A stretch of 64,000 nucleotides of DNA. Origin: Candidatus Multivoradales bacterium (GTDB lineage Bacteria; Acidobacteriota; Thermoanaerobaculia; Multivoradales; Multivoraceae). Made by a program: the position numbers and the translations under genes. The DNA lies in assembly GCA_965223325.1 (NCBI GenBank), contig CBDCWI010000001.1, positions 1,184,001 to 1,248,000 on the forward strand. Direction: 5' to 3'. Under the pieces are notes generated by a model. That model was not told where the DNA came from. It made no database searches and worked only from the letters and a program-made list of their open reading frames with translations. Below, one piece after another: positions 27,963-60,971 of this stretch. The first letter of the stretch is position 1. Each line of letters opens with the position of its first letter.

Positions 27963-30881
27963 ATGAAGAACACTACCTACTGGCGTAAGGCAGCGATTTT
28001 CGTTGCCGCGCTCTTCCTCCTCTCCGGAGTGGCCTTCGCGCAGGCGACGGGCAACATCTTCGTTGAGGTCATGGACTCTGATGGCGGCGCGCTTCCGGGC
28101 GTCACCGTCGTCGTTTCCGGTATCGGCGCCGACAAGACGCAGATCACCGACGCAAACGGTACCGCTCGCTTCCTCAACCTCGATCCGGGCGCCTATGCCG
28201 TCACCGGCGAGCTAGAGGGCTTCGGTGCGGTCGACTTCCCCGGCGTTCAGGTCGGCGTTGGTCGTAACACCGAGATCAACCTCAGCATGAACCCGGCGGT
28301 CGAAGAAACCATCACGGTTACCTCCGAGACCCCGCTCCTGGATGAGCGCAAGCTCTCCTCAGGCACCAGCGTCACCCAGGTCGAGCTCGAGAAGATCCCG
28401 ACTGCCCGTGACCCGTGGTCGCTCCTGTCGCAGACGCCTGGCGTGCTCGTCGATCGCGTCAACGTCGGCGGTTCTGAGTCCGGTCAGCAGTCGACCTTCC
28501 GCGCCCAGGGCGTGTCGGGCAACCAGAACGACTTCCAGGTCGATGGTCAGTCGATCACCGATATGGCAGCCACCGGCGCCTCGCCGACCTACTACGACTT
28601 CGATCAGTTCGCCGAGATGTCCTTCACCACCGGTGGAACCGACGCCTCCAAGAACAGCGCCGGCGTCCAGGTCAACCTGGTCACCAAGCGCGGCACCAAC
28701 GAGTTCCGTGGCTCCGGCCGCTTCTACTCGACCAAGGCCGGTGGTTACTTCGGCGGCGGTCTCAAGCAGTCCCAGGCCGATCTCACCAGCGAGCTCTACG
28801 CTGGCAACCCGAACGGCGCCCAGACGTCGCTCGCCGGTGCGCAGATCCGCGACATCGAAGACATCGGCTTTGAGGCCGGTGGCGCCGCGGTGCGTGACCA
28901 CTTCTGGCTGTGGGGCTCATGGGGTCAGCAGGACATCAAGCAGAACGCTGCCTCTGGTTTCCCGGATGACACCATCCTCGAGAACACCTCGATCAAGGCC
29001 AACGCTCAGTTCAACGCCGCCAACTCTGGCGTTGCATCGTTCAACAACGGTGACAAGCTGAAGTTCGGTCGCGGTGCTGGCACCACACGTCCGCCCGCAA
29101 CCACCTGGAACCAGCGTGGTCCGTCGGCGATCTATCGCGCAGAAGACACTCACGTCTTCTCCTCGAGCTTCTTCGCCACCGGTACCTACTCGCATGGCGA
29201 CTTCGGTTTCGCTCTGGCTGCCAAGGGTCACCTGCCGAGCCAGAACGGCCTCGATCCGGCAGCGCTTGATCCGCAGTTCGTTGGTGGCTCCTGGCAGGAC
29301 AACTACCTGACCGGCGCCAGCTCGCGTCCCTACGACGAGTTCAAGGTCGACACCCAGTACTTCATGACCACCGGCAACGTGAACCACGAGTTCAAGATCG
29401 GTGGCCGCTACCGCGAGTTCGAACAGAACTCCGACTTCAACTGGGGTCCCCGTAAGACCTTCCATGCAGACTGGAACGACACCGTCTACCACCTCGGCGA
29501 TACCGGCTTCGCCAACGCCGAGTACAGCTCCATCTGGGCACAGGACACCATCGCGATTGGCAAGCTGACCTTGAACGCGGGTCTGCGTTACGACAACCAG
29601 ACGGGCGACAACGAGGCCTACACGCGAGCCGCCCATCCGACGCGCCCGGACATCATCCCGGCGACGACGTTCGGTGGTGGCGATGCCGGCTTCGACTGGC
29701 AGTCGATCCTGCCGCGCCTTGGTGCGACCTACGCTTTGGGCGCTGATCGCTCAACGCTCCTTCGCGCCAGCTTCTCGCAGTTTGCGGACCAGATGGCCAC
29801 CGGCATGGTGAACCGCCTGTCCCCGTTCGGCGACATCTACGCCTACACCTACTCGGACACCGGCGAGTTCTACGCAGCCAGGGGCTTCAACCCGAACAAC
29901 CTGGCCGAGGTTGTCAATCAGAACGACCCCGGAATGGACGCTCCGGTAACCACCGAGTTCCTGGTTGGGGTCGAGCATGCGATCCTGCCTGAGCTGGTCG
30001 TCGGCGCGCAGATCACCGCTCGTAATGTCACCGACATCCTGGACTTCCGGGATCTCATCGACGACGGCAGTGGTGTCCGCGCCGCGCGCGGCTGCGCCAA
30101 CCCCGACGCCAACATCGCCATCGGTGCGAACTGCGGCGACTACCAGGTTGTCCGCCACCTCACAGGCGACGTCCCACGCACCAACACCACCTACCAGGTG
30201 CCGGTCTGGGATCTAACCTCACCGTGGAACGGTGGCTTCCTGGCCACCAACGGCGACCGTGAGCGCGACTACCTCGGATACTCGGTGACCATCACCAAGC
30301 GCCTTGCCAACCGTTGGATGGCGCGTGGTTATGTCCAGATCGGCGAGGCCGAGTGGGACGTCCCGACGTCGTATCACGTCAACAACGACCCGAACCACTT
30401 CCGTGGCGGCGGTCAGCGTGACGGTGATCTCTACGTAACCCGCTCGACTGGCTCCGGCAAGGGCGAGCGCTTCCTCCAGTCGACCTGGTCGTACAACCTC
30501 AACGGTATGTATCAGGTGTCGCCGGATCGTCCGTGGGGCTTCAACATCTCCGCGAACCTCACCGGCCGCGAAGGTCATCCGCTGATGTACTACCACCGTT
30601 CGGGGATCCAGACTGGGTCGTCGACGAACTTCAACGTAGTGCAGGGCGACTTCGACAACCTCCGTTTGGACGACGTTGAAGTCATCGACCTGCGCCTCGA
30701 GAAGGAGTTCTCACTCACCGGTCCGGTCAACATGACCTTCGGTATTGACGTGTTCAACTTGACCAACGAGAACACGGGCCTGTCGTACATCCAGCGTGCG
30801 GCGCGGTCGAACTCGGGCAACCTGGACGACAACGTGTCGCCGCGGATCTACCGCCTCGGCGTGCGTCTCGCCTGGAAGTAG
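27963..30881 (+). CDS. TonB-dependent receptor (CarboxypepD_reg + plug + barrel, Oar-like), paralog 1
   Basis: Signal peptide, GALPGVTV, EETITVT, IPTARDPW, NLVTKRGTNEFRG, TLNAGLRYD, C-terminal RLGVRLAWK. Confidence 0.9.
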   Translation: MKNTTYWRKAAIFVAALFLLSGVAFAQATGNIFVEVMDSDGGALPGVTVVVSGIGADKTQITDANGTARFLNLDPGAYAVTGELEGFGAVDFPGVQVGVGRNTEINLSMNPAVEETITVTSETPLLDERKLSSGTSVTQVELEKIPTARDPWSLLSQTPGVLVDRVNVGGSESGQQSTFRAQGVSGNQNDFQVDGQSITDMAATGASPTYYDFDQFAEMSFTTGGTDASKNSAGVQVNLVTKRGTNEFRGSGRFYSTKAGGYFGGGLKQSQADLTSELYAGNPNGAQTSLAGAQIRDIEDIGFEAGGAAVRDHFWLWGSWGQQDIKQNAASGFPDDTILENTSIKANAQFNAANSGVASFNNGDKLKFGRGAGTTRPPATTWNQRGPSAIYRAEDTHVFSSSFFATGTYSHGDFGFALAAKGHLPSQNGLDPAALDPQFVGGSWQDNYLTGASSRPYDEFKVDTQYFMTTGNVNHEFKIGGRYREFEQNSDFNWGPRKTFHADWNDTVYHLGDTGFANAEYSSIWAQDTIAIGKLTLNAGLRYDNQTGDNEAYTRAAHPTRPDIIPATTFGGGDAGFDWQSILPRLGATYALGADRSTLLRASFSQFADQMATGMVNRLSPFGDIYAYTYSDTGEFYAARGFNPNNLAEVVNQNDPGMDAPVTTEFLVGVEHAILPELVVGAQITARNVTDILDFRDLIDDGSGVRAARGCANPDANIAIGANCGDYQVVRHLTGDVPRTNTTYQVPVWDLTSPWNGGFLATNGDRERDYLGYSVTITKRLANRWMARGYVQIGEAEWDVPTSYHVNNDPNHFRGGGQRDGDLYVTRSTGSGKGERFLQSTWSYNLNGMYQVSPDRPWGFNISANLTGREGHPLMYYHRSGIQTGSSTNFNVVQGDFDNLRLDDVEVIDLRLEKEFSLTGPVNMTFGIDVFNLTNENTGLSYIQRAARSNSGNLDDNVSPRIYRLGVRLAWK

Positions 30882-31186
30882 CTTCTGTGTGCTAGATAGC
30901 ACACAAGCTACTTCTGTCACCCCGGCAAGCGCAGCAAGCTGCGCGCCTCGGCTCGGAAACGAAGTTAGAGGCGAGTTGACGGGGAGACAGTAAGAAGATT
31001 GGGCCGGAGGGAAACCTCCGGCCCTTTTTCTTTCCCGAGTTCCTGTGGGCTGGAAGACACACAAGCTACTTCTGTCACCCCGGCAAGCGCAGCAAGCTGC
31101 GCCCTCGGCTCGGAACGAGGTTAGAGGGCGAGTAGACGGGGAGACACAGAAGATTGGGCCGGAGGGAACCTCCGGCCCTTTTTCTT
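30875..31186 (+). repeat. Array A: 2 copies of a ~155-nt structured unit, each ending in a terminator
   Basis: cacacaagctacttctgtcaccccggcaagcgcagcaagctgcgc...ggggagaca...gggccggaggga(a)acctccggcccttttt repeated twice. Confidence 0.88.
31001..31034 (+). terminator. Rho-independent terminator (sister copies at ~31156, ~34354, ~34508, ~38624, ~38775)
   Basis: GGGCCGGAGG-GAAA-CCTCCGGCCC followed by TTTTTCTTT. Confidence 0.85.
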
Positions 31187-31283
31187 ACTCGGGGAGTTCG
31201 CTGAGGTGCGCTCTATCATTACCATCGGAGCGTCGCTAGGTCCGAAGTCCTTCCTCGAAGCCATGAGACGGAGAACAACTCCC

Positions 31284-34238
31284 ATGACGAAGAGCTCCTG
31301 TCGCGATTGCGTCCTCAAACGGACGTTGGTCCTCATCAGTCTCATCGCGCTGGTATCGACCGCCGTCGTGTTCGGGCAGGCCACCGGCAACCTCTTCGTT
31401 GAGGTCACAGACAACGAGGGAGTCGCCCTTCCCGGCGTCTTGATCGTGGTCTCGGGTATCGGTGCGAGCAAAGCGCAGATCACCGACGCAAACGGTGCCG
31501 TTCGCATTCTCAACCTCGACCCGGGCGTTTACTCCGTCAGCGGAAAGCTAGCGGGCTTCGGAACGGTCGACCACCCCGGTGTACTGATCGGGGTTGGCCG
31601 GAACACTGCGATCAAACTGGTGCTCCAGCCGGCGGTAGATGAAACCATCACGGTCACATCAGAGACCCCACTGCTCGATGAGCGCAAGCTCTCCTCGGGC
31701 ACCAGCGTCACCCAGCTCGAGCTCGAAAAAATCCCCACCGCCCGAGACCCGTGGGCCCTCCTCTCGCAGACGCCCGGCGTCCTCGTCGACCGCGTCAATG
31801 TCGGGGGTTCGGAGTCCGGTCAACAGTCCTCGTTTCGCGCTCAGGGCGTCTCAGGCGCCGAAAACGACTTCCAGATCGATGGTCAGTCGATCACCGACAT
31901 GACAGCCACCGGGACATCGTCGACCTACTACGACTTCGACCAGTTTGCCGAGATGTCCTTCACCACTGGTGGAACCGATGCGTCCAAGAACACCGCCGGT
32001 GTCCAGATCAACCTGGTCACCAAGCGCGGTACCAACGAGTTTCGTGGATCGGCTCGCTTCTACTCGACCAGGCCCGACGGCTACTTCGGCGGCGGACTCA
32101 AGCAGTCGCAGGTCGATCTCACCAGCGAGCTCTACGCTCGCAACCCGTATGGCGCCCAGGCGTCGCTCGCCGGCACCCAGACTCGCGCCATCAAAGACAC
32201 AGGCTTCGAGGCCGGTGGCGCTCTAGTTCGCGACCACTTCTGGCTTTGGGGCTCCTGGGGTCAGCAGGACATCAAGCAGAACGCCGCCACCGGCTTTCCC
32301 GATGACACGATCCTCGAGAACACCGCAATCAAGGCCAACGCCCAGTGGAGCGCCGCCAACTCCGGCGTTGCATCGTTCAACAACGGCGACAAGCTGAAGT
32401 TCGGCCGTGGTGCCGGCACCACCCGTCCCGCTGCAACGACCTGGAACCAGCGCGGTCCGTCGGGGATCTACCGCGTCGAAGACACTCACATCTTCTCGTC
32501 GAGCCTGTTTGCCACCGGCACCTTCTCGCACCACGACCTTGGTTTCGAACTCGTCGCCCGCAGCCACCTGGCCGACGGAAACGGTCTGGATCCAGCGGCT
32601 CGCGACCCACGCTTCATCGGAGGTGCCTGGCAAGACAACTTCCTCTCCGGCGGCACGTCCCGTCCCGCTGATGAGTGGAAGGTCGACACCCAGTACTTCC
32701 TGACCACCGGCAAGATGAACCACGAGTTCAAGATCGGTGGCCGCTACCGCGAATTCGAGCAGAACTCCGACTTCAGCTGGGGTCCCCGCAAGACGTTCCA
32801 TACAGACTGGAACGACACCGTCTACCACCTCGGCGACACGGGTACCACGACCGCCAAGTACACCTCGATCTGGGCTCAGGACACTCTAGCGATCGGCCGG
32901 TTGACCCTCAACGCGGGCCTGCGCTACGACCACCAGACCGGCGACAATGAAAGCCACACACGCGCCGCGCATCCAACCCGTCCGGACATCTTTCCAGAGA
33001 CCACTTTCGGGGGTGGCGATGCCGGCATCGACTGGCGATCCATCCACCCTCGCCTCGGTGCGACCTGGGCCCCGGGTTCGAACCGGACGAGCCTGATCCG
33101 CGCCAGCTTCTCGCAGTTCGCCGACCAGATGGGAACCACGATGATCAACCGCCTGTCCCCGTTCGGCGACATCTATGCCTACACCAACAGCGGTACCGGT
33201 GAGTTCTATGCCGCCCGCGGCTTCAACCCGAACAACCCGGCAGAGGTCGTCAACCAAAACGATCGCGGCATGGACGCTCCAGTCACCACCGAGCTCCTGG
33301 TCGGGATCGAACATGCGATCCTGCCTGAGCTCGTTGTCGGCGCGCACGTCACCGCGCGCAACGTCTCCGACATTCTGGACTTCAGGGATCTCATCGACGA
33401 CGGCCATGGTGTTCGTGCCGCCCGCGGCTGCGCCAACCCCGGCGCCAGCACGGCGACAGGAGCCACCTGTGGTGACTACGAAGTCGTTGGGCATCTCGGC
33501 CCACGGCCCAACGGGACGAACTACGAGATTCCTCGGACCGGACAAACCTACGAGGTTCCGGTCTGGGACCTGACGTCCCCCTGGAACGGTGGCTTCCTGG
33601 CCACCAACGGTGACCGCGAGCGTGACTACCTCGGCTACTCGGTGACCATCACCAAGCGCCTCGCCAACCGTTGGATGGCACGTGGCTATGTCCAGATCGG
33701 TGAAGCCGAATGGGATGTCCCGACCTCCTGGCACCTCAACAACGACCCGAACCACTTCCGCGGTGGCGGCCAGCGCGACGGTGACCTCTACGTGACCCGC
33801 TCGCTGGCAGCCGGCAAAGGCGAACGCTTCCTCCAGTCGACCTGGACATACAACCTCAACGGCATGTACCAGATCGGCCCGGATCGCCCATGGGGCTTCA
33901 ACCTCTCCGCCAACCTCACGGGCCGCGAAGGGCATCCGCTGTTGTACTACCACCGCGCGGCGATCCAGACGAGTTCGTCAACGAACTTCAACGTCACGCA
34001 GGGCGACTTCGACAACCTTCGTCTGGACGACGTCGAAGTCATCGACCTGCGCGTCGAAAAGGAATTCTCCCTGGCCGGCCCGGTCAACCTGACCTTCGGT
34101 ATCGACGTGTTCAATCTGACCAACGAGAACACCGGCCTGTCGTACATCCTGCGCGCAGCACGGCCGAACTCCGGCAACCTCGCCGACAACGTCGCCCCGC
34201 GCGTTTTCCGCCTGGGCGTGCGCCTCGGCTGGAAGTAG
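31284..34238 (+). CDS. TonB-dependent receptor, paralog 2
   Basis: GGAG before ATG 31284. Colinear and highly similar to paralogs 1 and 3. Ends RLGVRLGWK. Confidence 0.88.
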   Translation: MTKSSCRDCVLKRTLVLISLIALVSTAVVFGQATGNLFVEVTDNEGVALPGVLIVVSGIGASKAQITDANGAVRILNLDPGVYSVSGKLAGFGTVDHPGVLIGVGRNTAIKLVLQPAVDETITVTSETPLLDERKLSSGTSVTQLELEKIPTARDPWALLSQTPGVLVDRVNVGGSESGQQSSFRAQGVSGAENDFQIDGQSITDMTATGTSSTYYDFDQFAEMSFTTGGTDASKNTAGVQINLVTKRGTNEFRGSARFYSTRPDGYFGGGLKQSQVDLTSELYARNPYGAQASLAGTQTRAIKDTGFEAGGALVRDHFWLWGSWGQQDIKQNAATGFPDDTILENTAIKANAQWSAANSGVASFNNGDKLKFGRGAGTTRPAATTWNQRGPSGIYRVEDTHIFSSSLFATGTFSHHDLGFELVARSHLADGNGLDPAARDPRFIGGAWQDNFLSGGTSRPADEWKVDTQYFLTTGKMNHEFKIGGRYREFEQNSDFSWGPRKTFHTDWNDTVYHLGDTGTTTAKYTSIWAQDTLAIGRLTLNAGLRYDHQTGDNESHTRAAHPTRPDIFPETTFGGGDAGIDWRSIHPRLGATWAPGSNRTSLIRASFSQFADQMGTTMINRLSPFGDIYAYTNSGTGEFYAARGFNPNNPAEVVNQNDRGMDAPVTTELLVGIEHAILPELVVGAHVTARNVSDILDFRDLIDDGHGVRAARGCANPGASTATGATCGDYEVVGHLGPRPNGTNYEIPRTGQTYEVPVWDLTSPWNGGFLATNGDRERDYLGYSVTITKRLANRWMARGYVQIGEAEWDVPTSWHLNNDPNHFRGGGQRDGDLYVTRSLAAGKGERFLQSTWTYNLNGMYQIGPDRPWGFNLSANLTGREGHPLLYYHRAAIQTSSSTNFNVTQGDFDNLRLDDVEVIDLRVEKEFSLAGPVNLTFGIDVFNLTNENTGLSYILRAARPNSGNLADNVAPRVFRLGVRLGWK

Positions 34239-34650
34239 TTCTTGTGTGCTGGATAGCACACGAACTACTTCTGTCACCCCGCGAAGCGCAGCAAGCTGCG
34301 CCGCTCGACTCGGAACGGAGTCCCGAGCCGGATGGCGGAAGGCAGTAACGATTGGCCCGGGGGGAACCTCCGGCCCCTTTCCTTTTTCGTGCTTGCGCCC
34401 CTTGGCCTCTTGTGTGCCTACTTCTGTCACCCCGCGAAGCGCAGCAAGCTGCGCCGCTCGACTCGGAACGGAGTCCGAGCGGGATGGCCGAAGACAGTAG
34501 AACGATTGGGCCGGAGGGAAACCTCCGGCCCTCTTCTTCTTGTGCTTGCGCCCCTTGGGCTTTTGTGTACCGAATAGCACACAGCTACTTCTACTTCGAA
34601 CACCCCCCGGCCGCAGTGCGGGCAGTGGCCAAGCGCAGCAAGCTGCGCCG
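34232..34650 (+). repeat. Array B: 2 copies (period ~153) plus a fragmented third copy of the structured unit
   Basis: ctacttctgtcaccccgcgaagcgcagcaagctgcgccgctcgactcggaacggagtc at 34265 and 34418. Remnants at ~34575-34650. Confidence 0.85.
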
Positions 34651-34814
34651 TTCAGCTCGAAGCGCCGCTCGGAGCCAGGAGTCGCACTCCATGCCTCATT
34701 CCCAGAGTCACTACTCCGCGCAAGTCGCCGAAGGCGCGCGCATGAAAGCGCGACGTGCGAAGCACGAGCGCGCGCCCCCCTCACCCCACCGGCCTTCGGG
34801 ACCTCGATCCGAGA

Positions 34815-35096
34815 GGGCTGCTGGTGACGGGACGGGTGCCCGGAGCAGTCAGGCGGGAAAGGCGCAGGATCCAGCTTGGGCAGTCTCGGGACGTGGGGCG
34901 GATCAGGGCGGGCAGCTGTTTGAGCGGAACCCAGTCCCAGTTTCCCCAAAGGCCAGAGGACAGCCGGTCGCTCCAGCCACCACGACACCCGATCGAGGTC
35001 GAGCGAGTTCTGCCCGACCCCGCCCCGCGTCTCGAGAATGCCCTAGCTGGATGCGCCGGCCGTCGCTCCGGGCACCCGTCCCGTCACCAGCAGCCC
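34815..35096. repeat. ~280-bp fold-back element (MITE/REPIN-like) with 32-bp perfect terminal inverted repeats
   Basis: gggctgctggtgacgggacgggtgcccggagc (34815-34846) is the exact reverse complement of 35065-35096. The inner arms 34861-34915 and 35005-35057 pair imperfectly. Confidence 0.8.
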
Positions 35097-35142
35097 GGCG
35101 CAGTCCACAGACTTCCCCAACCAGCACACCCACCCGAGCCAC

Positions 35143-35211
35143 GAACCAACCAACAACCGACAACCGACAACCGACAACCGACAACCGATAACCGATAACC
35201 GATAAAAACCG
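35143..35211. repeat. Heptamer tandem repeat (CAACCGA)n/(TAACCGA)n
   Basis: caaccga caaccga caaccga caaccga caaccga taaccga taaccga, read directly. Confidence 0.85.
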
Positions 35212-35386
35212 CCAAGCAACCCAGAACCGTCCAACTCTTTGAAGACGACTCGGACTTTTGAACGCGTCCCGAAGCCGCTTATCCCATGTTCATCCCTGAT
35301 CCGCAGCACCTCTTATCCCATTTTTGTCCCTTGGCCCCCAAGCACTCGTCAAGAGCCCATCCCTGACCCATCAGCGATGCACTTCG

Positions 35387-35402
35387 TGGCACATTCCGTG
35401 CT
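35387..35402 (+). promoter_or_regulatory. Sigma-54 (-24/-12) promoter of TonB receptor 3
   Basis: TGGCACATTCCGTGCT = GG-N10-GC, preceded by TTCG exactly as in the promoter of paralog 1, about 170 nt before ATG 35572. Confidence 0.65.
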
Positions 35403-35571
35403 CCTTCGTCCCTTCAAGTAACCGTGGGCCCAGTCGCTCATCCCAGAGTGACCAGCGACCCAAACATGGAAGTTCGTCCCCTTTTTGTCCCATCGACACC
35501 ATTCGGTTCGCGGGGGTAAACAAACGGGCAGACGATCTTCTCCAACCCTTGAAGGGGAGAAACGCACAATC

Positions 35572-38505
35572 ATGAAGAAGAACTTCTTGCGCAGCCCTGT
35601 TCTCAGGAATGCCATCGTTCTCAGTGCCATCCTCGCGCTCGTGTCGACCGGAGCCGTGCTTGCACAGGCCACCGGCAACCTCTTTGTCGAGGTGACCGAC
35701 AGCGAAGGTGCCGCCCTACCCGGCGTGACCATTGTGGTCTCCGGTATCGGCGCAGACAAGACACAGATCACCGATTCCAACGGTGCCGTTCGCATTCTCA
35801 ACCTCGACCCCGGCGTGTACAACGTTGGCGGCGAGCTCGACGGCTTCGGCACCGTCGACTTTCCCGGCGTTCAGGTGAACGTTGGCCGTAACACGGAGAT
35901 CAACCTGACGCTTCAGCCCGCCGTCGAGGAGACCATCACGGTCACTTCCGAGACTCCGCTGCTCGACGAGCGCAAGATCTCGAACAGCACCAACGTCACT
36001 CAGGTCGAACTCGAAAAGATCCCGACCGCACGTGACCCATGGTCTCTCCTCTCACAGACACCCGGTGTCACCGTCGATCGCGTCAACGTGGGTGGCTCCG
36101 AATCGGGTCAGCAGTCGGTATTCCGCGCCTCGGGCGTTGACTCCGACCAGAACGACTTCCAGGTCGATGGCCAGTCGATCACCGACATGGCGGCCACCGG
36201 CGCCTCGCCGACCTACTACGACTTCGATCAGTTTGCAGAGATGTCCTTCACCACCGGTGGAACGGATGTTTCGAAGACCACCGCTGGTGTCCAGGTCAAT
36301 CTGGTCACCAAGCGGGGCACCAACGAGTTCCGTGGCTCCGGTCGCTTCTACTCGACCAAGGCTGGCGGCTACTTCGGCGGCGGCCTCAAGCAGTCGCAGC
36401 CCGATCTGACGAGCGAGCTGTACGCTGGCAACCCGAACGGCGCCCAGACGTCGCTCGCCGGTGCACAGATTCGCGACATCGAAGACATCGGCTTCGAAGC
36501 TGGTGGCGCGGCTGTCCGCGACCACTTCTGGCTGTGGGGCTCCTGGGGTCAACAGGACATCAAGCAGAACGCTGCCTCTGGTTTCCCTGACGACACCATT
36601 CTCGAGAACACCTCGATCAAGGCCAACGCACAGTTCAACGCTGCCAACTCCGGTGTTGCCTCGTACAACAATGGCGACAAGCAGAAGTTCGGTCGCGGAG
36701 CTGGCACGACCCGACCGCCTGAAACCACGTGGAACCAGCGTGGCCCGTCGGCGATCTACCGCGCCGAGGACACCCACGTGTTCTCCTCGAGCTTCTTCGC
36801 CACCGGAACCTTCTCGCACGGCGACTTTGGTTTCGCACTCGCTGCCAAGGGCCATCTGGCCAGCCAGGACGGCCTCGACCCGGCGGCGCGCGACCCGCAG
36901 TTCGTCGATGGTTCCTGGCAGGACAACTACCTGACCGGCGCCAGCTCGCGTCCCTACGATGAGTTCAAGGTCGACACCCAGTACTTCATGACCACTGGCA
37001 ACGTGAACCACGAGTTCAAGATCGGTGGCCGCTACCGCGAGTTCGAACAGAACTCCGACTTCAACTGGGGTCCTCGCAGTACGTTCCATGCTGACTGGAA
37101 TGACACCGTCTACCATCTCGGCTCGACCGGTGTCTCCACCTCGGAGTACAGCTCGATCTGGGCACAGGACACCATCTCACTTGGACGCCTGACCTTGAAC
37201 GCCGGTCTGCGCTACGACAACCAGACCGGGAGCAACGCTGCCTTCACGCGGGCCGCCCATCCAACGCGCCCCGACATCATTCCGACGACCTCGTTCGCGG
37301 GTGGTGACTCTGGGTTCGACTGGACGTCGGTGCTGCCTCGACTGGGTGCGACCTACGCAATCGGTTCAGACCGCTCGACGCTGCTTCGTGCCAGCTTCGC
37401 GCAGTTCGCAGACCAGATGCAGACCGACTGGGTCACCAGGCTGTCGCCTTTCGGCGACATCTACGCCTACACCTACACCGACACCGGCGAGCTGTACAGC
37501 GCGGTCGGATTCAATCCGGACAACCCGGCCGAGGTCGTCAACCGCAACGACTCTGGAATGGACGCTCCGGTGACCACCGAGCTTCTGCTTGGTATCGAGC
37601 ATGCGATCCTTCCCGAGCTGGTGGTCGGTGCCCAACTGACCGCACGTAACGTCACGGACATCCTCGACTTCCGCGATCTCGTCAACGACGGCGGCGTGGT
37701 GCGTACGGCCAATGGCTGCTCGAACCCCTTCGCCAGCACGGGCGTTGGAGCACGGTGCGGCGACTACGAAGTCGTCGACCGTTTGAGCGGGACGATTCCT
37801 CGCACCAACCAGGCGTATGACGTGCCGGTCTGGGATCTCGCAACGCCCTTCACAGGTGGCTTCCTGCTCACCAACGGTCAGCGCGAACGCGATTTCCTCG
37901 GCTACTCGGTGACCATCACCAAGCGCCTCGCGAACCGTTGGATGGCGCGGGGTTTCGTCCAGTACGGGGATTCGGAGTGGGACGTTCCGATGTCGCACTT
38001 CCTGAACAACGACCCGAACCAGTACCGTGGCGGCGGAAACCGTGACGGCGACCTGCACGTCGAGCGTTCGTCTGGCTCTGGCAAGGGCGAGCGGTTCCTC
38101 CAGTCGACCTGGTCCTACAACCTGAACGGCATGTATCAGGTCGGACCCGATCGCCCGTGGGGCTTCAACGTCTCGGCCAACATCAACGGTCGTGAGGGCT
38201 ACCCGATCGCCTACTACCAGCGCTTTGGGCTGGCCAGTGACGCATCGGCCAACATCGACATCATCAATGGTGACTACGACAACATCCGTCAGGATGACAT
38301 CGAGGTCCTCGACCTCCGCGTCGAGAAGGAGTTCTCGCTGACCGGACCGGTCAACATGACCTTCGGCATCGACGTCTTCAACGTCACCAACGAGAACACC
38401 GGCCTGAGCTACATCGCGCGTGCCGCGCGGTCGAACTCGGGCAACCTGGACGACAACGTTTCGCCGCGGATCTACCGCCTCGGCGTGCGTCTCGCCTGGA
38501 AGTAG
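35572..38505 (+). CDS. TonB-dependent receptor, paralog 3
   Basis: GAAGGGGAG RBS before ATG 35572. Same architecture as paralogs 1 and 2. Ends RLGVRLAWK. Confidence 0.9.
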   Translation: MKKNFLRSPVLRNAIVLSAILALVSTGAVLAQATGNLFVEVTDSEGAALPGVTIVVSGIGADKTQITDSNGAVRILNLDPGVYNVGGELDGFGTVDFPGVQVNVGRNTEINLTLQPAVEETITVTSETPLLDERKISNSTNVTQVELEKIPTARDPWSLLSQTPGVTVDRVNVGGSESGQQSVFRASGVDSDQNDFQVDGQSITDMAATGASPTYYDFDQFAEMSFTTGGTDVSKTTAGVQVNLVTKRGTNEFRGSGRFYSTKAGGYFGGGLKQSQPDLTSELYAGNPNGAQTSLAGAQIRDIEDIGFEAGGAAVRDHFWLWGSWGQQDIKQNAASGFPDDTILENTSIKANAQFNAANSGVASYNNGDKQKFGRGAGTTRPPETTWNQRGPSAIYRAEDTHVFSSSFFATGTFSHGDFGFALAAKGHLASQDGLDPAARDPQFVDGSWQDNYLTGASSRPYDEFKVDTQYFMTTGNVNHEFKIGGRYREFEQNSDFNWGPRSTFHADWNDTVYHLGSTGVSTSEYSSIWAQDTISLGRLTLNAGLRYDNQTGSNAAFTRAAHPTRPDIIPTTSFAGGDSGFDWTSVLPRLGATYAIGSDRSTLLRASFAQFADQMQTDWVTRLSPFGDIYAYTYTDTGELYSAVGFNPDNPAEVVNRNDSGMDAPVTTELLLGIEHAILPELVVGAQLTARNVTDILDFRDLVNDGGVVRTANGCSNPFASTGVGARCGDYEVVDRLSGTIPRTNQAYDVPVWDLATPFTGGFLLTNGQRERDFLGYSVTITKRLANRWMARGFVQYGDSEWDVPMSHFLNNDPNQYRGGGNRDGDLHVERSSGSGKGERFLQSTWSYNLNGMYQVGPDRPWGFNVSANINGREGYPIAYYQRFGLASDASANIDIINGDYDNIRQDDIEVLDLRVEKEFSLTGPVNMTFGIDVFNVTNENTGLSYIARAARSNSGNLDDNVSPRIYRLGVRLAWK

Positions 38506-38910
38506 CTTTGTGTGCTGAATAGCACACAGCTACTTCTGTCACCCCGCGAAGCGCAGCAAGCTGCGCCGCTCACCTCGGAACGCCGTTCCGAGCACCGGCA
38601 GCGGGGCGACCGTTAGAAGGATCGGGTCGGAGGGAAACCTCCGGCCCTTTCTTTTGCTTTGTGTGCTGAATAGCACACTGCTACTTCTGTCACCCCGCGA
38701 TGCGCAGCAACCTGCGCCGCTCACCTCGGAACGCCGTTCCGAGCACCGGCAGCGGGGCGACCGTTAGAAGGATCGGGTCGGAGGGAAACCTCCGGCCCTT
38801 TCTTTTGCTTTGTGTGCTGAATAGCAAACAGCTACTTCTGTCACCCCGCGATGCGCAGCAACCTGCGCCGCTCACCTCGGAACGCCGTTCCGAGCACCGC
38901 TAGCGGGGCG
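38499..38910 (+). repeat. Array C: 2 full copies plus 1 truncated copy of the structured unit (period 151)
   Basis: gtgtgctgaatagca at 38510, 38661 and 38812. Near-identical units. Confidence 0.9.
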
Positions 38911-39175
38911 CCAGCCCCTTCGCCCTGCCACGCGGGCCTCGAATCGAGCGTCGGAATCTGCAACCGGCCTCGCCTGTTGAACGGAAAGCAGTCCTCACAG
39001 GGGGCGTGGAGGCCTCTTCGTCTCGATCCGCGCTTCAGATAAACTGGCATTTCTCTTACGACACCCTCTTCCACTGAGCTTCCCTTCGGCCCTCGCGACC
39101 GATTCGACCCCGAGTTCGCCGCTCCCTGCGGCCCTCCGATCGACGCGCGAGAAGCTGAAACGACGGAGAATTCCC

Positions 39176-40189
39176 ATGTTCAAGCCATCTGTTTTCCAAC
39201 GAGCACGCTTCGCTTCCCTGGCTCTCGGCTGTCTGCTGGTCCTCGCCTTTGGCACGCTGTTCGCCACCGCCGCGAGTGCGCAGCAGTGGGGCGGCAAGGG
39301 GCGCATCACGGGCGAAGTCACCGACACTGAAGGCAACAAGATCGAGGGCGCGACGATCATTCTCGCGATCGATGGCGACGGGCCTCCACCGGTCACGACC
39401 AACAAGAAGGGGCGCTGGGCCAAGGCCGGCGTCCGTGGTGGCCTCTGGGACGTGCGCATCGAGAAAGAAGGCTTCGCGGCGAGCGAGACCAAGGTCCAAG
39501 TCAGCGAATTCGCCACCGGCATCGACCGAGCCCACGTCACAACCAAGCTCGGAACCGGCGGCGGCGGGGCGACTGCGACTGCCGATCGAGACGGCGCGGC
39601 GGAAGACGCTGAAATCGCGGCCGCCCGCACCCTCCTCAATGAGGGCAACAGCCTGCTCGCGGCTGAGGACCTGGACGGAGCGATGGCGAAGTTCAGTGAG
39701 GCGCTCCCTGCTCTCGGCGACGCCGCCAAAGTGCAGGTCATGACCTCAATCGCCCAGATCCAGGTCAACAAGGGTGATTCGGCAGCCGCCGTCTCCACTC
39801 TCGAGAAGGCTCTCGCGATCGATCCTCAGAACATCAACGCGCTCAAGGTCATCAGTCGCGCTCTAAAGAACAGCGATCGTGCCGCCGAGGCCGAGCAGTA
39901 CATCGCGCGCCTTCCCGAGGATCAGCGGGCGGATCCTCAGGAACTCCTGCAGCAGGGCGTCGACGCGTACAACCAGAACGATCTCGACGCGGCCTTCGGT
40001 CACTTCGACGCGCTGGTTTCCGCGGCTCCTGACGATCCACAGGCCTACTACTACCGTGGGCTCGTTGCGATGGCACAGCAGAACAACCCTCAGGCGATCG
40101 CCGACTTCAAGAAGCTGATCGAACTCGCTCCTGCCGACGAGAAGGCGATCGAGGGCAAGCAGTTTCTCGAGTACCTCGAGTCGCAGTAG
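39176..40189 (+). CDS. Exported CarboxypepD_reg + TPR protein
   Basis: GGAG RBS, signal peptide (..ASAQQW), GRITGEVTDTEG..IEGATI...TNKKGRW, C-terminal TPRs (AYYYRG..A.ADF). Confidence 0.85.
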   Translation: MFKPSVFQRARFASLALGCLLVLAFGTLFATAASAQQWGGKGRITGEVTDTEGNKIEGATIILAIDGDGPPPVTTNKKGRWAKAGVRGGLWDVRIEKEGFAASETKVQVSEFATGIDRAHVTTKLGTGGGGATATADRDGAAEDAEIAAARTLLNEGNSLLAAEDLDGAMAKFSEALPALGDAAKVQVMTSIAQIQVNKGDSAAAVSTLEKALAIDPQNINALKVISRALKNSDRAAEAEQYIARLPEDQRADPQELLQQGVDAYNQNDLDAAFGHFDALVSAAPDDPQAYYYRGLVAMAQQNNPQAIADFKKLIELAPADEKAIEGKQFLEYLESQ

Positions 40190-58633: not shown

Positions 58634-59593
58634 TCAAGGGCCGGCCCTCAGTGCCTGGACCGTCTCGAAGGGTCGCGGGCTCGGAAACGTCCCCTCAGGG
58701 AACTTCACGTCGAGTTCTCCCTCACGCTGACGGTCCCGCGCCAGCCGGTGCGCCCTCCACACCCAGTCAAAAGCTGCCAGCAGTCGCTGCTGCTCGTCCT
58801 CATTGCTGGCAATCACCAGCGGACAAGGGCCCAGAGCCATTTTCCTGGGAGTCCCGAAAGGGCTCAACCGAAAGAGCTTCCACTGGCCGGCAGGCTTCGT
58901 GCCTTCCCGTTTATGACGCGCTCGCGTCTCGCGTTCGATTCCGCGAATCATCTCGCGCACCCACTCGCAGTAGTCCTCGTCACTCAGGTGGTCAAGGCCC
59001 GGGAGCTTCGAAATCACCACCGTTTCCTTCTTCGTGAAGTCCTTCTTCGTCAGGTGACGCCCCGCCTTCGTACGCTTGGCCCGGCAATAGGCCGTGTGGT
59101 CGACCCACTCGCCCTCGAGCTCGAACTTCCCTTCCCACAAGGCCCGCGCGACGGTCACCCCAGGCCACTTGAGAGGTGAAGACACCAGGCCCGCCGCACA
59201 GCCCTGCGCCAGGACGTAGCGGAAACGCTTCGACGTATCGGCAGGGTCGCGCCCGATAAAGGACGGTTTGTAGGGCGTTTCCCACTTCGGGCCCTTCCAG
59301 CCATGGCGAATGCGGATCTCGACGCTCGTCTGCTGCTGGACGCGGTACATGAAGTCCGCCAGCTGCTGGGCGTCTCGTGCACCGACCAGGAAATGGTGGT
59401 GGTTGACCTGATAGTCGACGGCGTAGATGGGGGTATCGGTCTTGCGCTGTGCGCGGCCGATGATGCCGTTCATGTGTGATCGCTGCTCAGAGTCGGGCTT
59501 GAGCAGGAAGGTTCCGTTCGTAATGCGGGCGGTCAGCATGACTGGTTCCGGCCCGCTGTCGGTCGTTGGTACGTATCTCGGTTTTGCTCCCAT
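58634..59593 (-). mobile_element. HUH Y1 transposase, REP-associated (RAYT/TnpA-REP-like)
   Basis: T.R...FLLKP, HUH motif NHHHF, GPKWETPYK (cf. W..RY), catalytic Tyr in RYVLAQG..AGLV.SP..WPG, C-terminal FPEGTF. Flanked by inverted short repeats. Confidence 0.8.
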
Positions 59594-59822: not shown

Positions 59823-60971
59823 TCGCATCGAAGCCAGGAATCCGCGGCGCGCGACAAGCCCAACGAAGGCCACCGGCGCTCCTACAGGGCGATCTCATAG
59901 GCCTGGCGAACGCGCAACGGACCGCTTGCGCCGCAAAGGTGATCAGTAGCAGGAGCCGTGGTACACGAGTTGCGCTCCGAAAGGACGGCCGACAACCTGC
60001 TCCGCCTCTCATCGCGAGGCCCGCACTACAAAAGCGTCAAAACCACGTTGCGATACCAACCAGCGACCCACACCCAGGACCGCGCAGCGAATCGACCCTG
60101 GCGTAGCTCTCTGGCTCCCGCCCTCGCATCGAAGCCACGGTTCCGCGGCGCGCGACAGGCTTAACGAAGGCCACCGGCGCTCCTACAGGGCGACCTCATA
60201 GGCCTGGCGAACGCGCAACGGACCGCTTGCGCCGCAAAGGTGATCAGTAGCAGGAGCCGTGGTACACGGCGTCGCGATCGGAAAGGACGGCCGACAACCT
60301 GCTCCGCCGCTCATCGCGAGGCCCGCACTACAAAAGCGTCAAAACCACGTTGCGATACCAACCAGCAACCCACACCCAGGACCGCGCAGCGAATCGACCC
60401 TGGCGTAGCAAGCCCTCTCTGGCTCCCGCCCTCGCATCGAAGCCAGGAATCCGCGGCGCGCGACAAGCCCAACGAAGGCCACCGGCGCTCCTACAGGGCG
60501 ACCTCATAGGCCTGGCGAACGCGCAACGGACCGCTTGCGCCGCAAAGGTGATCAGTAGCAGGAGCCGTGGTACAAGACGTTGCGCTCCGAAAGGACGGCC
60601 GACAACCTGCTCCGCCTCTCATCGCGAGGCCCGCACTACAAAAGCGTCAAAACCACGTTGCGATACCAACCAGCGACCCACACCCAGGACCGCGCAGCGA
60701 ATCGACCCTGGCGTAGCTCTCTGGCTCCCGCCCTCGCATCGAAGCCACGGTTCCGCGGCGCGCGACAGGCTTAACGAAGGCCACCGGCGGTCCTACAGGG
60801 CGACCTCATAGGCTTGGCGAACGCGCAACGGACCGCTTGCGCCGCAAAGGTGATCAGTAGCAGGAGCCGTGGTACACGACGTTGCGCTGCGAAAGGACGG
60901 CCGACAACCTGCTCCGCCTCTCATCGCGAGGCCCGCACTACAAACAGCGCTAAAACCACGGCTCCTGCTAC
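59823..60971. repeat. Tandem array of 4 x ~300-bp units (ABAB higher-order structure)
   Basis: tcgcatcgaagcca starts at 59823, 60124, 60432 and 60734. The last unit is truncated and closed by a 17-bp inverted repeat. Confidence 0.92.

Follow-up and report, generated by a model that had tools for sequence, protein, structure and literature searches.

Stop-codon-anchored tandem repeat units behind receptor genes of a Candidatus Multivoradales bacterium: a possible repeat family of 3' untranslated regions

Introduction

A 64-kb stretch of the genome of a Candidatus Multivoradales bacterium (contig CBDCWI010000001.1, positions 1,184,001 to 1,248,000, referred to as the window) contains three paralogues in head-to-tail order that, according to the open reading frame (ORF) list and Pfam, encode TonB-dependent-receptor-like products of about 1000 aa. 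Behind each of them a tandem array of two to three structured units of 151–158 nt is located. The locus raises the question of what these units are and why a gene end should carry several of them, many with a terminator of their own. An earlier note on this DNA had regarded the units as a candidate new non-coding RNA or repeat family linked to the receptor genes and had pointed out that one terminator would suffice to stop transcription. The explanation that we favour, with even confidence and judging from sequence, is that the units belong to a lineage-specific modular repeat of the kind of repetitive extragenic palindromic (REP) sequences, BOX elements and MITEs (miniature transposable elements with inverted repeats). 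Such a repeat would reside in the 3' untranslated region (3' UTR), be co-transcribed with the gene in front of it, protect and terminate the mRNA end and amplify locally.

The source genome comprises 6.69 Mb on two contigs, C1 and C2, which correspond to two replicons; coordinates without a contig name refer to the window. No earlier description of the repeat family was found in a limited literature search on REPs, MITEs and tandem repeats of Thermoanaerobaculia.

Results

Units behind the receptor genes start in the stop codon

The repeat finder detected eight copies of a 59-nt core in the three arrays (Table 1), a 257-nt repeat (D1) that covers the end of receptor gene 2 together with the first unit behind it, and a 151-nt tandem family at 38505–38957 with identities of 100, 98 and 75%. 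Tandem Repeats Finder (TRF) assigned a period of 153 to array 2 and of 151 (2.7 copies) to array 3. When folded, the first units of the three arrays show the anatomy that had been described earlier for the ~150-nt units: a hairpin (H1), a three-way junction and finally a GGGCCGGAGG-GAAA-CCTCCGGCCC hairpin, whose stem of 10 GC-rich base pairs is followed by Ts. Compared with 200 dinucleotide shuffles, the first units of arrays 1, 2 and 3 reach z-scores of −9.0, −3.2 and −6.2. The three-way-junction core is built from P1 (TGTCaCCCC/GGGGnGACA), P2 (SSS-AA-GCGCAG-CAAG-CTGCGC-SSS, with a 3-bp base set off by an AA bulge) and a variable third stem, P3. An alignment of all eight units contains 44 invariant columns out of 216. 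As the earlier note had stated, units are more alike within arrays (92% identity in array 1, 83% in array 2, 93–98% in array 3) than between them (70–84%).

What had been overlooked is the position of the stop codon: the TAG of each receptor gene sits in the 5' arm of the first H1 (30879–30881 in array 1). H1 has the form GTAG, stem, loop, stem, CTAC, which is that of a REP-like palindrome with a GTAG-type head, and its 5' side AAGTAGCTT pairs with AAGCTACTT. In the receptor arrays TAG is present in the first unit only and the 3' arm is kept in every unit: all eight share an unchanged CTACTTC, which is complementary to GAAGTAG.

The terminator scan identified five intrinsic terminators on the plus strand within the units, and a sixth, imperfect one (34354–34377) is visible in the fold. 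The proposal that units have individual terminators is therefore true of six of the eight, and the last units of arrays 2 and 3 lack one; the former of these two retains H1 and P2 and has an insertion ahead of P2. Promoter-like (sigma-70-like) sites were absent from the arrays (0 found, 0.8 expected, in a scan for this promoter type).

We compared these gene ends with those of 12 receptor homologues from four other genomes. The homologues end in GWK followed by a stop codon (TAG in nine, TAA in two, TGA in one), and most have a hairpin after it. At six of the 12 loci a GC-rich stem followed by Ts is found, in several cases of the form GGCCGGRG..CYCCGGCC, which is close to the terminator in the window. 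None of the 12 3' ends carries the P2 core, and the association with 3' ends of TonB-dependent-receptor (TBDR) genes that had been expected in relatives was not recovered. The terminator therefore appears, as far as such a comparison can tell, to be part of the receptor gene's own 3' end that was copied along when the unit was duplicated. Since it looks gene-derived, the puzzle of why one terminator does not suffice disappears. Behind some receptor homologues in other genera (locus L091 in genome G010; L085, L090 and L094 in genome G005) tandem structured units of unrelated sequence are located, and those in G010 hold a GTGCT-GAT-AGCAC hairpin that resembles the inner part of H1.

Copies of the core lie behind unrelated genes

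No match to the Rfam 15 covariance models was obtained at the gathering score across the window, in line with the earlier suggestion of a new repeat or non-coding RNA family with a conserved fold; the best sub-threshold match in 30800–39000 (E ≤ 10) was PrrB_RsmZ with 24.1 bits (gathering score 44). With nhmmer the core was found 12 times in the genome at E ≤ 3e-5, and a covariance-model search agreed with this. These copies are confined to two loci, eight lying in the window and four at C2:1641015–1641633, and the next match has an E of 0.008. The second locus belongs to an array (C2:1640908, period 209) on the other replicon, behind a Bac_transf sugar-transferase gene. The TAG of this gene lies in the arm of a 113-nt hairpin, the receptor-type core comes next, and no terminator was seen in the array sequence read.

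We also searched the genome with a P2 pattern that uses sequence only and leaves the complementarity positions free. Of its 17 sites 16 are fully complementary in the 7-bp stem and the 3-bp base, and these comprise three stem sequences (GCGCAGC, GCAGCGC and GCACGGC) and three base sequences at eight loci. We consider this complementarity at free positions to be the best structure-blind support for P2 that sequence comparison offers. Beyond the two nhmmer loci the pattern sites include an array at C2:90912 behind another gene, two solo copies and an array between rplR and rpsE. Some arrays have a co-directional gene downstream, and the array at C2:90912 meets a convergent gene; such varied downstream contexts favour a 3'-end element over a leader. 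Because the same core is found behind the Bac_transf gene and variants of it behind another gene and between rplR and rpsE, the P2-core units are not receptor-specific, and the proposed link to the receptor genes had to be given up.

The array at the rplR-rpsE junction (C2:2441451–2441955, minus strand) contains variant cores. Its unit is made up of the element and 57 nt from the start of rpsE, each truncated copy being closed by the TAG of the element, and the intact rpsE comes after the last unit.

A genome-wide family of stop-codon hairpins

A search of the genome for [C/G]TAG hairpins revealed a family with a main form of ~113 nt and additional forms of 94 and 35 nt. The 113-nt hairpin has the layout [C/G]TAG-N7-8-CGTGGT, ~80 nt, ACCACG-N7-8-CTA[G/C], so that conserved outer (CTAG) and inner (CGTGGT) boxes are 7–8 nt apart. 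The N7-8 arm segments differ from locus to locus yet are complementary to each other, perfectly so in 23 of 47 distinct arm pairs. The head is CTAG in 34 and GTAG in 14 of 53 elements. Outside TAG, complementarity extends over one base in 51 and over two bases in 32 of the 53, beyond which it falls to chance level.

The orientation of an element was set by its G/T-rich interior, and an element was counted as anchored when its TAG closed a frame of at least 100 codons with a GC content at third codon positions (GC3) of at least 0.70. By this measure the sense-side TAG closes a qualifying frame in 37 of 49 long hairpins and the antisense-side TAG in one of 49. As a baseline, 8.5% of all TAGs in the genome close such a frame, and TAG is the stop codon in 39% of a crude gene set (1706/4366). 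Of the 12 long hairpins without an anchor, at least five belong to arrays with an anchored first unit, in which they occupy a later position. The hairpins are hence anchored at stop codons and co-oriented with the upstream gene, which can be read directly from the DNA.

Long-period tandem arrays are frequent in the genome (about 71 with a period of at least 90, TRF). Most [C/G]TAG hairpins are followed by a module that we call core2, and hairpin and core2 together form arrays of 2–7 units. A strict hairpin-core2 pattern gave 62 matches in the source genome against 0 for the control, and 0 in any of 60 relatives. Several of these arrays have the 5' arm in the first unit only and the 3' arm in every unit, and in several the inner box marks the precise border between units. 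One core2 array is located in the window. The TPR gene in front of it (748 aa) has its TAG stop within a [G]TAG hairpin of 115 nt, and here, too, the 5' arm is limited to the first unit and the 3' arm is found in all. An nhmmer profile of 40 distinct core2 copies did not match the P2-core loci (best E 3.4), and homology of the two cores was rejected; they are therefore two different modules sharing one position. A looser pattern census (CTA[GC]..TCAC..GCAAGC) counted 94 matches against 32 for the reversed pattern and was not used, the control being high.

The receptor arrays are tied to the hairpin family because H1 is the stop-codon-containing [G]TAG...CTA[C] form, and because the arrays at C2:1640908 and C2:90912 join a 113-nt hairpin to a receptor-type core and a 94-nt hairpin to a P2-core variant, respectively.

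Copies in related genomes

The covariance model matched seven of 61 related genomes, the source genome included, at E ≤ 0.01, with 20 matches in one genome of another genus, 10 in another and three in a same-genus genome. The element order in the relatives is CTAG-hairpin-CTAG, P2 core (stems GCGCGGC and GCGCCGC), long hairpin and CTAG. The copies are dispersed behind varied genes, several at contig ends, and in two relatives they have constant arms and CTAG borders, compatible with TA or CTAG as target. The earlier note had named dispersed copies unrelated to TBDRs as a sign of an ordinary REP; to some extent these exist, namely as the 20 and 10 matches in two of the relatives. A strict pattern was moreover scanned against one genome per species (about 186,000 species genomes) and returned 41 stretches, 31 of them in Thermoanaerobaculia/Acidobacteriota records. 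The other 10 are single matches in unrelated taxa, which we have taken as chance. Judged by this distribution, the source organism probably belongs to the Thermoanaerobaculia.

In an alignment of 19 distinct relatives' copies, which was itself fitted to the covariance model, 17 of 24 pairs change on both sides as compared to 8.0 ± 1.6 in shuffles (0/500 reach this value). With the relatives included, covariation is clear in this model-fitted alignment for P1, the P2 base and one further P2 pair.

Transposases, group II intron and integrase

The genome contains 28 Y1_Tnp matches, 25 of them above cut-off. All 28 are flanked by other inverted repeats or by none, never by the [C/G]TAG hairpin; where Y1 genes were read with such a flanking repeat, it is of the GTCGGGGGGACTTTCCC or GTCGGGGGTAAGTTTTGA type and unrelated to the hairpins of the units. 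On these grounds a link to REP-associated tyrosine transposases (RAYTs) was rejected, and the mobilisation by HUH enzymes that had been considered earlier is not supported. A genome search for the same hairpin arms at a distance of 160–6000 nt returned only arrays and intron insertions and no transposase. A Y1_Tnp (HUH) gene of the window itself (~59225–59485, minus strand, flanks to ~59800, ~319 aa) has inverted copies of GTCGGGGGGACTTTCCC on either side and resembles the tyrosine transposases associated with terminal inverted repeats that are given for Acidobacteria in PMC3733652.

A group II intron (RF02005, 181–183 bits) is present in 14 copies with an identical 521-aa reverse transcriptase, at C1:1611044–1612606 and 13 other places (L113–L115). 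In 12 of the 14 copies it sits at one core2 site, between CCGCTTG and CGCCGCAA, antisense to the neighbouring host gene. When six units were compared with the 1.9-kb intron by blastn, the best match was 18 nt long (E 0.03) and no significant similarity was found, so that an origin of the units from intron fragments was rejected.

An integron-integrase-like gene was found at C2:3806467–3808190 (L117; TIGR02249, 422.7 bits, cut-off 265). In the 2.3 kb read upstream of it, tRNA-fragment repeats and none of the [C/G]TAG hairpins were seen, which leaves a link to integrons unsupported. The repeats beside this gene are 134 nt long and carry a fragment like a tRNA 3' end, and an apparent tRNA gene lies on the opposite strand.

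Discussion

A repeat element at mRNA ends and the points against it

According to the explanation we favour, a family member would consist of a hairpin ([C/G]TAG ... CTA[G/C]) with the upstream gene's TAG at the start of its 5' arm and of a structured core, here the P2 core CCC-SSS-AA-GCNNNGC-loop-GCNNNGC-SSS within a three-way junction. At the receptor locus such an element would occupy the space that separates the stop codon from the intrinsic terminator belonging to the receptor gene. The segment of hairpin, core and terminator would have been duplicated two to three times, and the receptor gene itself as well. The units would most likely be transcribed together with the receptor gene and form the end of its mRNA, the majority of transcripts stopping at the first terminator; the stable hairpins would keep exonucleases away from the mRNA 3' end, and the repetition of terminators would serve to insulate the neighbouring receptor paralogues from one another. 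Additional units would then be a side effect of slippage or unequal recombination, by which the arrays grow, rather than separately needed genes. Position and orientation of the units are consistent with the role at the mRNA end that the earlier note had listed among its possibilities.

If this is correct, an uncultured acidobacterial lineage would possess repeats with three properties that are rarely combined: an exact start at stop codons, a near-perfect co-orientation with the preceding gene and long tandem arrays at dozens of gene ends. They would provide a clean natural case for how non-coding repeats locate 'safe' sites and reshape mRNA 3' ends and operon insulation.

Several observations weigh against this explanation. 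The reverse strand of the first units folds about equally well (z = −6.7, −9.4 and −4.8), and since both strands are similarly stable, folding energy cannot choose between them. The identity of units between arrays is similar to that of the adjoining coding sequence (82–91%), so that their similarity could come from recent duplication instead of constraint. Covariation within the source genome is weak: among 10 full cores three of 24 pairs change on both sides, two of them within the P2 base and the other within the third stem, a number reached by 65 of 500 shuffles, and 92.4% of cells are paired compared to 88.2% in shuffles. The compensatory changes that had been reported earlier for the third stem thus stand only in part; its variants are real hairpins in single-sequence folds, but because their register differs they do not amount to column-by-column covariation, and it is the relatives' copies that supply the clearer signal. 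Stop-codon anchoring is weak in the relatives: of 19 copies in which an upstream hairpin could be detected, only four close a frame of at least 160 codons with a GC3 of at least 0.85. Neither the Y1 flanks nor the same-arm search revealed an autonomous partner for the repeat family. Finally, arm mismatches of the 113-nt hairpins, some loci contributing more than one, are distributed on the gene-sense strand as 18 A.C, two G.T and 14 others. With A.C in such excess over G.T, wobble pairs would form on the antisense strand, or else C-to-T changes may be more frequent on that strand. This bias, which was counted in the 113-nt hairpins, fits an antisense-strand or DNA-level role of the 113-nt hairpin better than a role in the sense mRNA.

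Alternative explanations

A possible though not a likely alternative is that the hairpins act as DNA, being substrates of single-strand recombination or transposition of a REP/RAYT-like, attC/integrase-like or retroelement-linked kind, with the arrays as a by-product. The mismatch bias just described would suit such a role, as would the locus-specific yet complementary arms, boxes spaced 7–8 nt apart in a layout reminiscent of attC sites, the unit boundary at the inner box with the 5' arm in the first unit only, the antisense intron at a fixed core2 site, and the presence of 28 Y1_Tnp matches and an integron-integrase-like gene. In addition, the combination of a GTAG/CTAG head and a palindrome is shared with the GTAG REPs presented by Di Nocera 2013 (PMC3733652). 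None of the candidate enzymes, however, could be connected to the hairpins: the Y1 genes that were read are flanked by a different inverted repeat, the same-arm search gave no transposase, the 2.3 kb read upstream of the integrase-like gene showed none of these hairpins and the units are not significantly similar to the intron. Furthermore, the receptor units have T runs on the sense strand after the last hairpin, and a 37:1 polarity toward the upstream gene is unexpected for a strand-blind DNA element. A related idea, which we hold to be doubtful, is that the outer arms of the hairpin are templated on the stop-codon region of each host gene instead of being carried in ready-made. Every unit would then hold, within a conserved scaffold, a locus-specific 'anti-stop' segment of 7–17 nt, complementary to ...N-TAG-N7 (CTACTTC in the receptor units). 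If true, this would imply target-templated or guide-directed (re-)insertion at gene ends, possibly by way of one of the reverse transcriptases, HUH enzymes or integrases in which the genome abounds, or else cis-acting antisense modules aimed at translation termination sites, and the resident group II intron would exploit the repeat family as a homing ground.

We consider it unlikely that each unit gives rise to a discrete small RNA (sRNA) of ~150 nt, derived from the 3' UTR or processed, with its own terminator and acting in trans or on the receptor mRNAs. In its favour, sRNA genes that lie in tandem and have their own terminators do exist elsewhere, six of the eight units end in a terminator, and the P2 stem-loop and CTACTTC are invariant in all eight units, CTACTTC being complementary to GAAGUAG, the sequence with which each of the three receptor mRNAs ends; but this invariance may simply reflect recent duplication. 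The units also lack a promoter-like site, related cores lie behind unrelated genes, and the array at C2:1640908 has the same core with no terminator in the sequence read. That last array likewise argues against a ligand- or protein-sensing attenuator, in which three-way junction and terminator would form a tandem riboswitch-like leader of the next gene. The layout of an aptamer-like junction plus terminator would be appropriate for it, and receptor genes 2 and 3 do have arrays 1 and 2 upstream of them, the gene-2 ORF starting 20–80 nt past the last terminator. Yet the stop codon of the preceding gene is a component of the first hairpin, neither array 3 nor C2:90912 is followed by a co-directional receptor gene (the latter meeting the convergent gene), copies in relatives are dispersed behind varied genes, and Rfam gave no match. 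The genomic contexts already disfavour the attenuator, and we regard it as very improbable.

Comparison with known repeats

The repeat family is closest in kind to REP/BIME, BOX, MIRU and attC-like elements, but fails the tested defining features of each; it is set apart by its anchoring at stop codons, a near-absolute polarity, arms that are specific to the locus and long arrays of direct repeats. According to PMC3733652, REP/GTAG palindromes occur for the most part downstream of coding sequences, in clusters, and are presumed to be transcribed and to function as hairpins of RNA. With REP/BIME and GTAG REPINs our family shares the short GC-rich palindrome, the GTAG-type head and the clustering downstream of genes. 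Unlike in REPIN-RAYT systems, no RAYT (Y1 HUH) gene is flanked by these hairpins. In contrast to REPs, the head is more often CTAG than GTAG (34 vs 14 of 53) and coincides with the stop codon of the upstream gene, and the arms are locus-specific. Where REPs occur in high copy of one sequence, the P2 core has 12–17 copies at 2–8 loci and the 49 long hairpins have differing arms; where REPINs are inverted doublets, our units are modular, 150–300 nt long and arranged in direct tandem arrays. As regards MITEs with their constant terminal inverted repeats, the arms are constant in two relatives and locus-specific in the source genome.

BOX elements of pneumococcus, ERIC/IRU and Correia/NEMIS are non-coding, modular, strongly folding intergenic sequences that are co-transcribed with their neighbours, and the units resemble them as modular folding elements of intergenic regions. 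They differ in that there is no sequence relation, those held in Rfam having given no match; to our knowledge, none of these families has been reported to start inside stop codons or to show a polarity of 37:1. Mycobacterial MIRUs are tandem units of tens to ~100 nt between operon genes, co-oriented with them and overlapping stop and start codons. The co-orientation and the overlap with the stop codon recur here; by description, to which this comparison is limited, MIRUs contain small reading frames, and the present units are dominated by hairpins.

attC sites are imperfect palindromes conserved in structure and not in sequence, into which group IIC-attC introns insert in antisense. Conserved outer and inner stem boxes, a location at the 3' end of a reading frame, fixed polarity and an antisense group II intron lineage are common to both. 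Unlike in attC sites, the R''/R' consensus (RYYYAAC / GTTRRRY) was not seen in the sequences read, by eye and with no formal search; unlike cassette arrays, the elements are dispersed on the two replicons, where they follow ordinary genes of large size; and the intron's insertion site is part of core2 and not of the hairpin. A further group for comparison are tandem sRNA genes that each have a terminator, such as OmrA/OmrB, PrrF1/PrrF2 and Qrr, some of which regulate outer-membrane receptors; they are similar as head-to-tail units of ~100–150 nt that end in a terminator. They differ from our units, which show no promoter-like site of their own, start in a stop-codon hairpin and share a core with units behind unrelated genes. 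From riboswitch leaders the units are distinguished by their beginning at the upstream stop codon and by the varied genes in front of the relatives' copies.

Features of the window

Table 1. Positions of receptor genes, arrays and structural elements in the window
Feature	Position	Strand	Description
Receptor gene 1	27963–30881	+	972 aa; CarboxypepD_reg and Plug (Pfam); ends ...TGG AAG TAG
Receptor gene 2, paralogue of gene 1	31206–34238	+	1010 aa counted from the first listed start; CarboxypepD_reg and Plug
Receptor gene 3, paralogue	35485–38505	+	1006 aa; CarboxypepD_reg and Plug
Array 1	30876–31195	+	Units 30882–31040 and 31041–31195; H1 of the second unit degenerate
Array 2	34233–34680	+	Units 34239–34392 and 34393–34546 (H1 mostly deleted), partial third unit from 34547
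Array 3	38500–38915	+	Units 38506–38656 and 38657–38807; truncated unit 38808–~38915 without terminator
59-nt core, eight copies	30908, 31066, 34265, 34418, 34612, 38530, 38681, 38832		Repeat finder
Hairpin H1, array 1	30876–30913	+	AAGTAGCTT.TGTGTGCT / AGCACACAAGCTACTT; folds and sequence
H1 counterparts, other arrays	34233–34270, 38500–38535
Three-way-junction core	30914–30990	+	P1, P2, variable P3; folds and sequence comparison
Equivalent cores	begin near 31072, 34271, 34424, 38538, 38689, 38840
Intrinsic-terminator hairpin, then T run	31001–31024	+	Terminator scan and fold
Further terminators	31156–31178, 34508–34531, 38624–38647, 38775–38798	+	Terminator scan
Second array type	59823–60971	−	core2 units, period ~302, 3.7 copies; behind the 748-aa TPR gene
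115-nt [G]TAG hairpin	60857–60971	−	Holds the TAG stop of the 748-aa TPR gene

Arrays of this kind break short-read assemblies, and in automated scans they may be mistaken for sRNA genes or riboswitches. Over 30400–39300 the contigs of four DNA runs are short and interrupted at the repeats. At 34715–34842, in the interval that separates array 2 from receptor gene 3, these contigs show many joints and loose ends, with a back-step of 48, a skip of 69 and varied inserted letters, which suggests a variable short-repeat region.

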